Positions 50,653-54,553 are shown, counted from the first letter of the stretch. The stretch is 64,000 nucleotides of DNA from Candidatus Latescibacterota bacterium (GCA_965206595.1 OZ242214.1:5536001-5600000), one strand, 5' to 3'. Made by a program: numbers and translations. Notes: a model not told the origin generated them from the sequence alone.

Positions 50653-50769
50653 ACGGCGCCGGGGAACAAGCCGGCGCTCTTTGATTGATCGTGAATTCCC
50701 TTCGGGGCGATGGAATACCAGCTGCCGGCAGGTTGTTTCAGGGGAAGCCGGAGCGCACTTTTCCCGGGT

Positions 50770-51609
50770 ATGAGCGATCGTTCTGAAACGAGCTGGACTC
50801 CCGCGATGCCGGACGTCGATTCGGTGTTCGCACAGTACCCCGATCCGTTGCGCGCCCTTTCAGAAGCGGAGATTCCCGCCATTCTGCTGCCCCGGGTGTA
50901 TCCCCGGGAGGAGTGCGACGGTCTGATCGGGCGATTTGTCGAGCGCAACCTGATGAAGGGCCCGGACGATTTCCGGCCGGGTGACCGGACGCGCATCGAC
51001 ATCGGTACCAGCCTCGGCAATCGGGGCAACGACCGCGAAGGGTTCCTCGCCAGCTCGGCGGCCACTCACGAGCTGTTCTCCACCCTGTTCGACGGCTTCG
51101 ATAACCCGGTACAGCTGATTTACGATTACCTGCAGCGGCTCGGCCGCGGCAAGAAGGTGATGACCGCCCGGGAGCCGGACGGGAGGCGCTACGGGCCGGC
51201 GATCTTCCGCATTCACTACGAATCGCACAGCTACAAACCCCACATCGATCACGTCACCCTGCGTGAAAAGCGGTTCGACTACGCCGTTACCCGCTTCGAG
51301 CACCAGTTCGCCGGCGTGCTCTGCCTGCAGAATGCAACGCGCGCTGCGCAAACCACTCAGGCGCTGCTGCACCGCTGTCTCTGGAGCGGGGAGGTGCAGC
51401 CGCACATCGAGCAGGGAACCTTCCCCGAGTACGCCGCGGTCCACCGGGTGCAGAACTACCGGGTCGATCTCGGTGCGGGAGACCTGTACTTCTTCAACAC
51501 CCGCTGCATCCACGAGGTCCCGCCCGTGGTCGGCAGCGATCCGCGCATCGTCCTCGCCGTGTTCATCGGCTACTCCCCGGACGATCCCGAGATCTTCGTC
51601 TGGTCCTAA
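50770..51609 (+). CDS. Fe(II)/2-oxoglutarate-dependent dioxygenase
   Basis: PHID...GDLYFFNTRCIHEV...R (HxD...H facial triad). Start is uncertain. Confidence 0.75.
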   Translation: MSDRSETSWTPAMPDVDSVFAQYPDPLRALSEAEIPAILLPRVYPREECDGLIGRFVERNLMKGPDDFRPGDRTRIDIGTSLGNRGNDREGFLASSAATHELFSTLFDGFDNPVQLIYDYLQRLGRGKKVMTAREPDGRRYGPAIFRIHYESHSYKPHIDHVTLREKRFDYAVTRFEHQFAGVLCLQNATRAAQTTQALLHRCLWSGEVQPHIEQGTFPEYAAVHRVQNYRVDLGAGDLYFFNTRCIHEVPPVVGSDPRIVLAVFIGYSPDDPEIFVWS

Positions 51610-51860
51610 GCCCAGTGGGGCAATCCCGGCGCCCGGGCGGCGGTAGTCCGGCATGCCAATTTCTGGGACAGAACGCACGTCGTTTTATTCTAAGACGCAT
51701 AAAAAACAGCAGTTTGCGGTGCCCTTCCGAACAACCCCCGGTAACGCTGCTGCGGTTGCCGGGTGCGGAGAGGCTGCCTATCTTTGGTGACTCTGAACGC
51801 TTGGCCGCGGGCAGATAGCCTTGGTGCGAGCGCTCCAAACATGACGGAGAACAGGTTCCG

Positions 51861-52295
51861 ATGCCCAATTTCAGCGTCGAAATTCATGACGACGAGCATT
51901 TCGAAAAGGCGCTGCGGCGCTTTACGGTCAAGACCAAGAAGTGCGGCCTGATGCGCGATCTGAAGCGCAAACGGTACTATACCAAACCGTCGGCGCAGAA
52001 GAAGATCGATCGCCAGAAGAACATCAGGAGGCAGAAGAAGGCCGAAAGGTTGGCTGAGCTGGCAGCTGCCGGGATCGACCGTCGCAGCATGCGGGGTGGC
52101 CGGGGAAGGGGCCGAGGCGGTTATGGCAGTGGCAGCGGCGGCGGGTATGGCAGTGGCAGCGGTGGCGGGTATGGCAGTGGCAGTGGCGGCGGGTATGGCA
52201 GTGGCGGCGGCGGCGGGTATGGCAGTGGCAGTGGCGGCGGGTATGGCAGTGGCGGCGGCGGCGGGTATGGCGGCGGTGGAGGCCGCGGTCGTTAG
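51861..52295 (+). CDS. rpsU: 30S ribosomal protein bS21 with a C-terminal Gly/Tyr/Ser-rich and RGG extension
   Basis: EHFEKALRRF..K....GLMRDLKRKRYYTKPS is the bS21 signature; followed by RGGRGRG(GGYGSGSG-like)x7 RGR. Confidence 0.88.
   Translation: MPNFSVEIHDDEHFEKALRRFTVKTKKCGLMRDLKRKRYYTKPSAQKKIDRQKNIRRQKKAERLAELAAAGIDRRSMRGGRGRGRGGYGSGSGGGYGSGSGGGYGSGSGGGYGSGGGGGYGSGSGGGYGSGGGGGYGGGGGRGR
52116..52283 (+). repeat. Seven tandem 24-nt units encoding GGYG(S/G)G(S/G)G
   Basis: Consensus GGCGGGTATGGCAGTGGCAGTGGC repeated in frame. Confidence 0.92.
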
Positions 52296-53407
52296 GCCGG
52301 CTCTCCGCTGATCAGGGACATCAGCTCCACCCCGATAAACCGGTTCCGCCAGCCGCGCAGCAGCGCGTGCCGTTCTTCAGTCGCCTGCTCGCCATCCCTG
52401 ACCAGCGCCCTTACTTCCGAGCGCGTCGCCACCAGCGCGTGATCGATCCCCTTGTCGGCGCTCCGCTTTTCCAGAAGTTCGATCACGGCTTTGCTGCGCG
52501 CGGCGAAGGTTTTTTCGTAACGCGACCGCGGGTTCCCGTCGGGCAGCTCTTCCTCAGGAATCTCCAGTCCCGCTTTCACTGCGTCGACAACGGCTGTTCC
52601 GTGGCGGTGCAGGCGTTTGTCCCTGAACCGCAACAGTTCCCCGGTGCCGGCCGGCTTGCACTGCGCAAGCAGTAGCAGCGTCCGGTCGGACATCACCCAT
52701 CCTCGCGGCCGGTTGACTGCCCGCGCCTCGCACTCCCTCCAGGCAGTCAGCTCCCGCAGGACCGCAAGCTCTCGGCGCGAAAGCCGCCCCCGTCCCTTGA
52801 TCCGCTCGAACTGACCGCGGGGCTCGCGTTCCTCGTAAAGGCTCTCGTCGTCGAGGGCTGCCATATCCTCGCACATCCAGCTCTCGACGCCGCGCTCCCG
52901 CGCCCGGCGCAGGAGTTCCCGGTGCGCCGCGTGCAGAAAACGCACATCGTCGAGGGCGTAGCCGATCTGGGTTTCGCTCAGCGGCCGGCGCAGCCAGTCG
53001 GTCCGCGTCTCGGTCTTGTGCAGGTCGACCTCGACCAGCTCGACGAGCAGGTCGCGCAGTGAGATCGTCGAGGAGAGGCCGGCGAAACCTGCGGCGACGC
53101 GGGTGTCGAAGATGTTGCGCGGCGACACGCCGCTGGCGCGCCTGAGTATCGACAGGTCCTGGACGGCGTCGTGCAGGATTTTCGTGACCTTCGCATCCTC
53201 CAGCAGCTGTCCGAGGGCAGCGAGGTCGACGGCCGTGGCGTCGATCAGGTGAAGGTCGCTGTCAGAAAGGGCGAGCTGGACGATTCCGAGGTGTGGGTAG
53301 TAGGTGCGTTCCCAGACCAGTTCGGTGTCGAGCGCGACCAGGGGTTGCCGCCCGGCACGATCGACGAGTGCCGCCAGTTCCGCTTGCGAATCGATGAGCG
53401 CTGACAA
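52292..53407 (-). CDS. rnd: Ribonuclease D (DEDDy exonuclease plus HRDC)
   Basis: ALDTE, KILHDAVQD, IFDTRVAA, TDWLRRPLS...YALDDV and HRDC (LTAWRECEARAVNRP). Confidence 0.92.
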   Translation of the reverse strand: MSALIDSQAELAALVDRAGRQPLVALDTELVWERTYYPHLGIVQLALSDSDLHLIDATAVDLAALGQLLEDAKVTKILHDAVQDLSILRRASGVSPRNIFDTRVAAGFAGLSSTISLRDLLVELVEVDLHKTETRTDWLRRPLSETQIGYALDDVRFLHAAHRELLRRARERGVESWMCEDMAALDDESLYEEREPRGQFERIKGRGRLSRRELAVLRELTAWRECEARAVNRPRGWVMSDRTLLLLAQCKPAGTGELLRFRDKRLHRHGTAVVDAVKAGLEIPEEELPDGNPRSRYEKTFAARSKAVIELLEKRSADKGIDHALVATRSEVRALVRDGEQATEERHALLRGWRNRFIGVELMSLISGEPA

Positions 53408-53422: not shown

Positions 53423-54265
53423 CTAGTTCGCTGTTTCCCGAAGCCGTCCCGCGTCGTCCAGCTCGGGACGGTCGAGGCGCCTGTGGTAGGGGGGCTCGAG
53501 AATGGCCCGCTGTTCCGGTGTCATTCCCTCCAGCATCTGCTCGGGCCAGGGCATGTACCCCGTCGCGTAGGCGAGGTTGGCGGGGGTGTAGCGGTACAAC
53601 AGGGAGCGGCGCTCGCGCTCGGAGCGCCAGGGCAGGGTGCCGTGGGTCACCGCTTCGGTGAAGATGACGATGTCGCCGGCGCCGCAGCTGATCGGACGCA
53701 CGATTTCCCGGCGACGGTGCCACAGCTTGATCGGCCGCGGGCAGGCGAAGTTGGCCTTGTGACTGCCGGGGATGAGGCAGAGTCCGCCGTCCCCTTCCTC
53801 GACGTCCGACAACTGCCAGGCAACGACCGTCAGGCCGTTGTGCATCTGCCCGTCGCGGTAGATGTAGTACTGATTGGGGTCGAAATGCGGGCCGGAGGAA
53901 CCGTGCAAGGTGTGCCCCTCGGCTCCCTTGCGCATGGTGATGAGGCCGGGGCTGTGATCCATGCGGAACCCGGGACCGACGATCTGGTTGAGATAGGGCA
54001 CGATGCGAGGGTGGGACAGCATGTGGCGAAACACGTTGCGCCAAGGTTCCTCCCAGCCCAGCATGCCGCCGAGATCGCCGCGGCCCGTCGTTCCCTTGAG
54101 GCTCGTCGATTCACCCGACAGCGACAGGTCCCCGAGGCGGATGTTGATGGCGTCCGCGTGGTGGTCGATCGCGGTGTTGGCGGCGGCTACTTCGGCAGCC
54201 GTCAGCACCTGCTCCACTACGAGGTAGCCGTTGAGATCGAACAGGTACAGCTCTTCTTCGTTCAT
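53423..54265 (-). CDS. Phytanoyl-CoA dioxygenase (PhyH)-family protein
   Basis: FDLNGYLVV, GGLCLIPGSHK and AGDIVIFTEAVTHG..W....RR. Confidence 0.85.
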   Translation of the reverse strand: MNEEELYLFDLNGYLVVEQVLTAAEVAAANTAIDHHADAINIRLGDLSLSGESTSLKGTTGRGDLGGMLGWEEPWRNVFRHMLSHPRIVPYLNQIVGPGFRMDHSPGLITMRKGAEGHTLHGSSGPHFDPNQYYIYRDGQMHNGLTVVAWQLSDVEEGDGGLCLIPGSHKANFACPRPIKLWHRRREIVRPISCGAGDIVIFTEAVTHGTLPWRSERERRSLLYRYTPANLAYATGYMPWPEQMLEGMTPEQRAILEPPYHRRLDRPELDDAGRLRETAN

Positions 54266-54553
54266 GGCGGCTCGGTTCCCGACCGACAAGATATCCCCCT
54301 GCCCTTCAGGCGGCCAGGGGGAACCGGTCTGCCTGCCAGCCGTCAAGGTGCCGGTCAATTACTACCTGAGGGTCAGGGATGCGGCATGGCGAAATCAGGC
54401 TGCACCCCGGCATCGCCTACCTCGAGATCAATACCCCGCCGAACCTGCTGCAGGCGCAGGAACCCCCGGGGGAGATGAGGAAGCTCCTGGATCCGGAATG
54501 ACCCTGGGCCGGATCTGCTGCCGACGGAGAAACCGGACTGATCCAGAGGCCTG

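Follow-up and report, generated by a model that had tools for sequence, protein, structure and literature searches.

What does a long glycine-rich repeat do at the end of a ribosomal protein? The question is raised by rpsU, the gene for ribosomal protein bS21, at positions 51861-52295 of a 64,000-nucleotide stretch of DNA (hereafter the window) from Candidatus Latescibacterota bacterium (GCA_965206595.1 OZ242214.1:5536001-5600000). The host genome (G000) is one contig of 7,053,161 bp, with 63.7% GC and a completeness of 92.9%. Here the bS21 core is followed in frame by a tail of 69 residues. This lineage-specific addition to a ribosomal protein uses a type of tail that RNA-binding proteins are known to have. 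We lean towards the view that this tail acts as a ribosome-tethered, disordered, cationic and aromatic arm that would contact RNA, without sequence specificity, at the mRNA exit and anti-Shine-Dalgarno (anti-SD) side of the 30S subunit. A literature search, with subscription journals and supplements outside its scope, did not turn up any account of a Gly-rich or RGG tail on bS21, and tailed proteins already stand in public databases as plain '30S ribosomal protein S21'.

The window rpsU encodes a bS21 core with a 69-residue tail

Over amino acids (aa) 5-58 the protein matches PF01165 (Ribosomal_S21; E 9.1e-13, 48.2 bits against a cut-off of 27), its sole Pfam match, and it also scores above the cut-off of the NCBIfam equivalog TIGR00030 (41.2 bits against 28.95). 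When PF01165 was run over the whole genome, this gene was the one match above cut-off; three sub-threshold matches of 12-14 bits fall inside long unrelated frames. The window rpsU is the organism's working, single-copy bS21 gene. A KPS/T sequence is named as a conserved bS21 motif in the accessible text of a study of the protein (PMC7797042), and the window protein has TKPS at aa 41-44, followed by a basic C-terminal helix that AlphaFold places at residues 45-70. The region of K43 and P44 is invariant in 17 aligned bS21 sequences, and the M-x-NFSV N-terminus and the bS21 core are kept across relatives.

The tail occupies aa 76-144: SMRGGRGRGR is followed by seven units of the form GGYG(S/G)G(S/G)G, and RGR ends the protein. 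It is composed of 44 Gly, 11 Ser, 7 Tyr, 6 Arg and 1 Met, that is, 64% Gly, and has no acidic residue. GYG occurs seven times between residues 88 and 136, with an exact 8-residue spacing of the Tyr, and RG/RGG motifs are clustered as RGGRGRGRGG at aa 78-87 and as GRGR at the C-terminus. In the DNA, positions 52116-52271 form a tandem repeat of 6.5 copies of a 24-bp unit according to Tandem Repeats Finder (TRF; 92% matches, score 270). Repeat units 3 and 5 are identical in DNA, as are units 4 and 6, which indicates that a 48-bp block of two units was duplicated recently. Read in either of its other two frames, the repeat has no stop and would encode an Ala/Val-rich or a Trp/Gln/Arg-rich tail. 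The original prediction, made from the sequence alone, had described a bS21 core continuing in frame into an RG linker, seven units and a terminal RGR, 144 aa in all, and the open reading frame (ORF), Pfam, TIGR00030 and the codon table bear this out; the statement that this is about double the usual length is also accurate, Escherichia coli bS21 having 71 aa.

We scanned the whole genome in six frames, from stop to stop, for frames of at least 60 aa containing a 30-aa window with at least 50% Gly and at least three Tyr/Phe. Only two frames passed, rpsU and a 75-aa frame with a poly-G run, so a Gly/aromatic tail is not general to this GC-rich genome. The poly-G frame (G000:C1:2920932-2921156) holds 21 consecutive Gly encoded by a GGN tract and probably represents simple sequence with no coding role. 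With the criterion relaxed to RG-rich segments, 67 frames came up; as the genome is GC-rich, these were for the most part off-frame ORFs and are uninformative. We also considered the tail as a module shared with other proteins and rejected this, the 22 tail-matching non-S21 proteins (by Pfam TonB, RRM, keratin-associated, DUF7666 and others) being generic low-complexity matches. The matches of the window bS21 to eukaryotic RRM proteins are of the same low-complexity kind, and a search of the tail against the ESM Atlas gave no usable match.

Probable place of the tail on the ribosome

Of 31 PDB matches to the window protein, 26 are bS21 chains. The core, from residue 6 to residue 64 or 67, aligns to residues 4 to 60 or 65 of the 71-aa E. 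coli protein, so that the end of the canonical protein marks the start of the tail. The two proteins share the same Pfam and TIGR family, an alignable core, the KPS motif, a basic C-terminal helix and a single gene copy; they differ in that E. coli bS21 stops where the Gly/Ser/Tyr/Arg tail starts. Plastid bS21c (PDB 5mmj chain u, 180 aa; 5x8p chain u, 137 aa) likewise has terminal extensions that take it beyond the bacterial norm, and its core aligns as well; Gly/Tyr repeats were not seen in it, although no examination was aimed at these extensions. An AlphaFold2 run on the 17-sequence alignment gave helices at 14-28, 30-38, 45-70 and 74-78, and a predicted local distance difference test (pLDDT) score below 50 with no secondary structure over residues 85-135 and 137-144. 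The tail is predicted to be intrinsically disordered.

In the available portions of two published studies, bS21 contacts the 3' tail of 16S rRNA, with its anti-SD, at the mRNA exit path (PMC7797042; bioRxiv 10.1101/2023.09.02.556006), in agreement with the location that the original prediction had given, and a quoted proposal has bS21 touching mRNA 5' of the SD helix (bioRxiv 10.1101/2023.09.02.556006). Because the core aligns to residues 4-65 of E. coli bS21, the tail should leave the 30S platform near this site; we infer the anti-SD and mRNA exit side from the alignment to solved bS21 chains together with the published structures. Residues 45-85 of the window protein are rich in Lys and Arg, and its C-terminal domain is strongly basic.

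The link that the original prediction drew to altered SD usage in some bacteria of the FCB group fares less well. In the Bacteroidia, with Flavobacterium johnsoniae as the example, bS21 sequesters the anti-SD and, according to the accessible text, has a short, less basic C-terminal domain with a signature Tyr54 (PMC7797042). The likeness to the window protein is that of a lineage-specific change in the C-terminal domain at the 16S 3' tail, and, provided that submitters have labelled close homologues correctly (Gemmatimonadota / Ca. Latescibacterota), the two lineages fall within the wider FCB group. Here, in contrast, the C-terminal domain is strongly basic, a long repeat tail is present and Arg stands at about the Tyr54 position: in the alignment to the Flavobacterium chain, query residues 6-55 match chain residues 4-53, and the next query residue, one beyond the alignment, is Arg. 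The anti-SD is canonical and an SD-like motif precedes rpsU. The single 16S rRNA gene, found by an Rfam small-subunit search and read directly, ends in GGATCACCTCCTTTCT, with CCTCC, and GGAG or GGGAG precedes the rpsU start in most of 75 ORFs of the family. Together these argue against anti-SD sequestration of the Bacteroidia type. The genome also holds a full-length bS1 gene (602 bits). Its single RRM protein (106 aa, G000:C1:6721795-6722115) has only a short basic KKGFRRRGGRRR end, and a whole-genome search with PF17209 found no Hfq gene.

Glycine-rich tails recur across the family

We searched 76 genomes of the family, of which 72 gave a match, and obtained 75 bS21 ORFs (three genomes have a second copy), 74 of them with the N-terminal anchor. 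A Gly-rich extension was defined as at least 10 Gly after the IRRQKK motif. Since kin are not independent, the counts describe the sample and test nothing. Such an extension is present in 29/74 anchored ORFs, from 7/18 genera, so that the alignment of orthologues proposed in the original prediction does reveal tails in relatives. Six of the 74 ORFs are of 70 aa or less and have no extension, 30 are of 71-89 aa and typically end in GLDRRGRKRR or in a few RG residues, and 38 are of at least 90 aa. The lengths range from 66 to 144 aa in the family and from 97 to 144 aa in the window's genus, the window tail being the longest among the family ORFs.

Most Gly-rich extensions are (GGRGx)n repeats, and 21 of the 29 belong to genus g14. 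There (21/30 ORFs) the tail is a run of GGRGA, GGRGT or GGRGP pentapeptides with an SPR end and no aromatic residue in the repeat, and the number of pentapeptides varies between species, up to about 8. At least two Gly-flanked Tyr/Phe are found in 4/74 ORFs, from three genera (genomes G000, G001, G003 and G016), and a single GFG motif in G013, G018 and G006. The family's repeat units are of 5, 7, 8 and 9 aa, all read in the frame that gives Gly together with Arg and/or Tyr/Phe, and Arg is the last residue of nearly all the tails. The length of bS21 does not follow the GC content of its flanks (Spearman rho -0.06, n=75), so the tail is not a by-product of base composition. Outside the family, a survey of 92 genomes from 13 other families of the phylum matched no tail, the matches to the query ending at or before about residue 82.

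The second bS21 copies are those of G021, G042 and G063 (loci L075, L083 and L085). In G021 and G063 the second copy differs from the first and has no Gly-rich tail, and in G042 both copies have the same C-terminal sequence.

The same architecture on an alphaproteobacterial bS21

An exhaustive representative search gave 402 matches at E<=0.001, of which the best 150 were listed and 25 of these read. Among those best 150 there are Gly-rich ends on other bS21 lineages, for example P0092, P0122, P0124, P0142, P0158, P0187 and P0199. Another bS21, P0036, is only 29% identical to the window bS21. A search with P0036 scored 8000 candidates; the best 120, all of them of 107-172 aa, were listed and eight of them read. 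Many of these 120 are named Hyphomicrobium or Hyphomicrobiaceae, and cultured strains are among them: H. nitrativorans NL23 (118 aa) and Hyphomicrobium sp. ghe19. In the eight Hyphomicrobium-type proteins that were read, the core leads into a linker rich in RG(P)G, followed by GG[FY]G repeats and by Arg as the last residue, in the same order as in the window bS21; they differ from it in having a core of the alphaproteobacterial type and repeat units of their own. To judge from these sequences, the same tail architecture arose independently on an unrelated alphaproteobacterial bS21 core.

The number of units varies

We checked the array by mapping the Logan short-read contigs of four runs to 51600-52600. 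In all four runs (4/4) the contigs break inside the repeat, and none spans the array. Run X1 gave exact pieces for 51600-52193, which takes in the core, the linker and units one to three, and for 52242-52600, with shorter pieces between them. No stop or frameshift ahead of the repeats was seen in the short-read contigs. Also in X1, two short contigs have a 3-nt deletion inside the repeat at 52241, at a depth of 86 of 187, which may reflect a second variant of the repeat in that sample, or else a contig that derives from a different unit. Contigs from the RNA library X19 lack 52106-52271, which has no bearing on whether the tail is transcribed. One X19 contig of 316 nt, with 10 differences, covers 51798-52105 of a relative, and the RNA library may also contain DNA. 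Independent evidence for the tail itself is strong: all three genomes of the genus carry a tail of this type, as do many independent metagenome proteins. For this reason we rejected misassembly or another artefact as its main explanation.

In the two other genomes of the genus, bS21 has 136 aa with five 9-residue units YGSGGGGGG (G001) and 97 aa with a short RGGRGRGRGGFGSGGGGRRY (G002). Dozens of metagenome proteins bear the tail. Three of them have a core identical or nearly so to that of the window: P0045 with 4 units in 120 aa, and P0001 and P0046, the latter from a 2.38-Mb contig, each with 5 units in 128 aa. The window protein (7 units, 144 aa) is the 5-unit allele plus one two-unit block, matching the duplicated 48 bp. 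A second protein cluster has forms of 118, 125 and 132 aa, that is, steps of 7-residue units. Short-read assemblies can collapse repeats, and some of the shorter forms may be artefacts. The variation in repeat number that the original prediction had anticipated is therefore seen at several levels, with 4, 5 and 7 units in near-identical proteins, five 9-residue units in the sister species, and up to about 8 GGRGx in g14. On the best reading, the tail evolves via slippage or unequal recombination of short in-frame repeats, and its length differs among strains, species and genera.

What the tail may do

If the tail is an RNA-contacting arm, as we favour, the normal helical core of bS21 would sit next to the 3' end of 16S rRNA, on the platform of the 30S subunit, and the disordered tail would extend from the end of the canonical protein. 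The tail would offer a positively charged Arg-Gly linker, seven Tyr 'stickers' set at even intervals among Gly/Ser spacers, and a tip of Arg-Gly-Arg, and might hold or loosen the 5' leader of an incoming mRNA, or rRNA in late 30S assembly, through contacts of Arg with phosphate and of Tyr with bases. Three features argue for selection on the peptide, as far as sequence comparison can tell: the Gly frame is kept in unrelated units though the others are open, Arg tips recur, and length is independent of GC.

Proteins with comparable tails are known. The low-complexity domains of FUS and of hnRNP A-type proteins combine [G/S]Y[G/S] motifs with RG/RGG stretches, and that of FUS has Gln and Asn. 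The label 'hnRNP/FUS-like' given in the original prediction holds for composition, since the window tail has [G/S]Y[G/S] motifs, RG/RGG stretches and predicted disorder; it does not hold for descent. Homology is absent and the resemblance is compositional only, the window tail being much shorter, 64% Gly and without Gln or Asn. Nor does it have the polar, Q/N/S-rich composition by which FUS-type prion-like domains are recognized. Closer in form are the glycine-rich RRM proteins (cyanobacterial Rbp, plant GRP, animal CIRBP), which carry GGYGG/RGG-type tails on an RNA-binding domain. Pfam detects no RRM domain in the window bS21, which is an analogue and not a member of that group: its tail has no RRM and is borne by a ribosomal protein itself. 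The closest bacterial analogue is Acinetobacter Hfq, an RNA-binding core with a long disordered Gly/aromatic repeat tail. Its GGFGGQ repeats affect RNA interaction and fitness, and their number matters, according to the portion of the study available to us (PMC11617691); it differs in having an Sm hexamer core and an acidic tail tip, whereas the window tail ends in Arg and has no acidic residue.

Several points weigh against an RNA-contacting arm. We infer the contact through Arg and Tyr from composition and analogy. The evidence on Hfq repeats concerns another protein (PMC11617691), and cyanobacterial Rbp1's glycine-rich C-terminus is, in the accessible text, dispensable under cold stress (PMC12232666). 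A bS21 without the tail serves close relatives, as in the 6/74 ORFs of 70 aa or less and the 30/74 of 71-89 aa, so the tail is dispensable on evolutionary time scales. Its length is very labile, 97-144 aa in one genus, as is also expected for weakly selected low-complexity sequence. Finally, because the short-read contigs break inside the repeat, the count of seven rests on the assembly, a single 7-Mb contig.

Some of the same observations would suit nearly neutral growth, in which GGC-rich 3' repeats slip in replication and are tolerated as the C-terminus faces the solvent, with no specific function. This we hold to be unlikely. The recent 48-bp duplication left by units 3/5 and 4/6 speaks for it, together with the spread of lengths in the family (66-144 aa) and in the genus, the many relatives without any tail, and a tail grown until the rpsU stop overlaps that of rnd, the gene downstream. 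It is harder to reconcile with a frame and a G+R(+Y/F) composition kept in 29/74 ORFs from unrelated units while other frames are open, with the recurrence of Arg-ending tips and with the lack of any relation to local GC. Neutral growth would also have to account for the independent Hyphomicrobium architecture, in 120/120 of the matches listed (107-172 aa), and for the finding of nothing comparable in any other ORF of a genome of 63.7% GC.

Aromatic valence and Arg govern the phase behaviour of low-complexity domains of this kind, and the tail may instead be, as the stronger reading in the original prediction has it, a condensate or ribosome-clustering module, with Tyr as stickers between Arg flanks. 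Tailed ribosomes would then self-associate or co-condense with RNA, for example in stress or dormancy, and the number of units would set the threshold. The seven Tyr at an exact 8-residue spacing, the Arg-rich flanks and the absence of acidic residues are consistent with such a module, and the sticker-and-spacer pattern recurs with other unit lengths in G001 (9 aa), P0006/P0051 (7 aa), P0007 (9 aa) and Hyphomicrobium. Unit number is moreover polymorphic among near-identical proteins. However, 21/29 Gly-rich relatives, all of g14, have RGG-type repeats with no aromatics in them, and only 4/74 ORFs have at least two Gly-flanked aromatics; because the repeats of most tailed relatives lack aromatics, the common denominator of the family is Arg/Gly and not stickers. 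One tail per ribosome gives a low valence unless RNA bridges the tails, and no other protein in the genome has a comparable G/aromatic segment with which to co-condense. We consider this role quite improbable.

That the tail is mainly a binding or assembly aid, raising the affinity of a weakly bound, late-assembling bS21 for the 30S subunit or chaperoning the 16S 3' minor domain and not acting on mRNA, is very unlikely: bS21 is indeed among the last proteins incorporated and is exchangeable, in the accessible parts of two studies (PMC7797042; PMC7074383), and the basic GLDRRGRKRR tip of tail-less relatives suggests that the ancestral C-terminus was perhaps already an rRNA-contacting basic peptide into which repeats were inserted, but 69 residues go far beyond the need to reach neighbouring rRNA, and the aromatic modules would be left unexplained.

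Gene neighbourhood

The features of the locus are collected in Table 1.

Table 1. Features of the rpsU locus and of its neighbours, in window positions
Feature	Position	Strand	Basis or remarks
WelO5-like 2-oxoglutarate (2OG)-Fe(II) oxygenase gene, upstream of rpsU	50710..51609	+	PF22814, E 1.3e-21
GGAG Shine-Dalgarno-like motif, 11 nt 5' of the rpsU ATG	51846..51849	+	read from sequence
rpsU coding sequence, 144 aa plus TAG stop (52293-52295)	51861..52295	+	ATG start; ORF call, sequence, Pfam, TIGR00030
bS21 domain, aa 5-58, with TKPS at aa 41-44	51873..52034	+	PF01165, 48.2 bits; E. coli bS21 alignment; AlphaFold helices 14-28, 30-38, 45-70
Last part of the long basic C-terminal helix, plus the short AELAAAGIDRR segment, aa 59-75	52035..52085	+	AlphaFold helices 45-70, 74-78; kept in close relatives
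Arg-Gly linker SMRGGRGRGR, aa 76-85	52086..52115	+	sequence; RG-rich linkers common to relatives
Seven 24-bp / 8-aa units GGYG(S/G)G(S/G)G, aa 86-141	52116..52283	+	TRF, codon table, pLDDT <50
Terminal RGR, aa 142-144	52284..52292	+	Arg-ending C-termini recur in relatives and Hyphomicrobium
rnd, convergent RNase D gene	52292..53407	-	PF01612 (DNA_pol_A_exo1) and PF00570 (HRDC)
PhyH-family 2OG-Fe(II) oxygenase gene, after rnd	53423-54358		Pfam

The canonical rpsU operon is that with dnaG and rpoD. The window rpsU is not beside these genes and sits between a 2OG oxygenase gene and the convergent rnd; a PMT_2 glycosyltransferase gene also lies upstream on the same strand. The ends of rpsU and rnd overlap by 4 nt (52292-52295), with TAG on one strand and TAA on the other, so that a terminator would have no space between the two genes. 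G001 and G002 have the same junction. The rpsU/rnd pair is flanked by two 2OG-Fe(II) oxygenase genes, one of the WelO5-like halogenase/hydroxylase family and one of the PhyH family. In the relatives' loci, rnd lies beside rpsU in 9/30 and the WelO5-like gene is present in 9/30, with oxygenase, rpsU and rnd together in 8/30. Because this triplet is also found around the tail-less, 80-aa bS21 genes of other genera (L012-L014, L018), the gene context is independent of the tail. No Rfam family was found in 51000-53000; a promoter scan gave no promoter-like site, and its only terminator-like site falls inside rnd.

In 34 loci of the family a cold-shock-domain gene (csp) follows rpsU on the same strand with a strong SD of its own. 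They comprise all the g14 loci tested together with loci of g9, g13 and g2 (e.g. L064, L063, L043, L015, L019 and L069). The downstream csp is a complete gene with an AGGGAGG-type SD, and its KGFGFI sequence begins 117-303 nt past the rpsU stop. The window's genus is without this arrangement; csp-like genes are at G000:C1:3096814-3096969 and 1885202-1885351. In cyanobacteria, Sato reportedly described in 1994 a cluster, regulated by cold, in which rpsU is joined by the gene of a Gly-rich RNA-binding protein; the rpsU-csp adjacency echoes it. At locus L008 (G003, minus strand, about 1348-1520), the TGA of a 124-aa tailed rpsU is followed directly by an in-frame cold-shock domain. This begins SKGFGFIQREG, without its first approximately 13 residues and without any start codon, and may be a gene remnant or a stop-interrupted fusion of bS21 with a cold-shock domain.

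Significance

Small changes in bS21 reprogramme the choice of start sites in Bacteroidia and alter gene expression in Francisella, according to those parts of the literature available to us. A long, repeat-built RNA-binding tail at the site of the mRNA 5' leader would, if our favoured reading of an RNA-contacting arm is true, be a new and simple way to alter message recruitment. The design of the tail has an independent origin in two phyla and varies between strains. The window organism is apparently known only from metagenomes; cultured Hyphomicrobium share the architecture, so the role of the tail is open to bench work.

A wider and more speculative view, to which we give little credence, is that bacteria have repeatedly given the ribosome a low-complexity sticker-and-spacer arm, at least in this sponge/marine family and in Hyphomicrobium. 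Such an arm would gather mRNA at the exit and anti-SD site, bridging by RNA would lead to reversible clustering or condensation of ribosomes, and the number of units in each strain would set the threshold. If true, the arm would be the ribosome's own equivalent of the glycine-rich cold-shock RNA-binding proteins that act in trans and have a genomic link to rpsU, in cyanobacteria and, as csp, in this family. Should the tails demix, the bacterial translation machine would offer a rare example of a 'eukaryote-style', low-complexity domain that is part of its structure.

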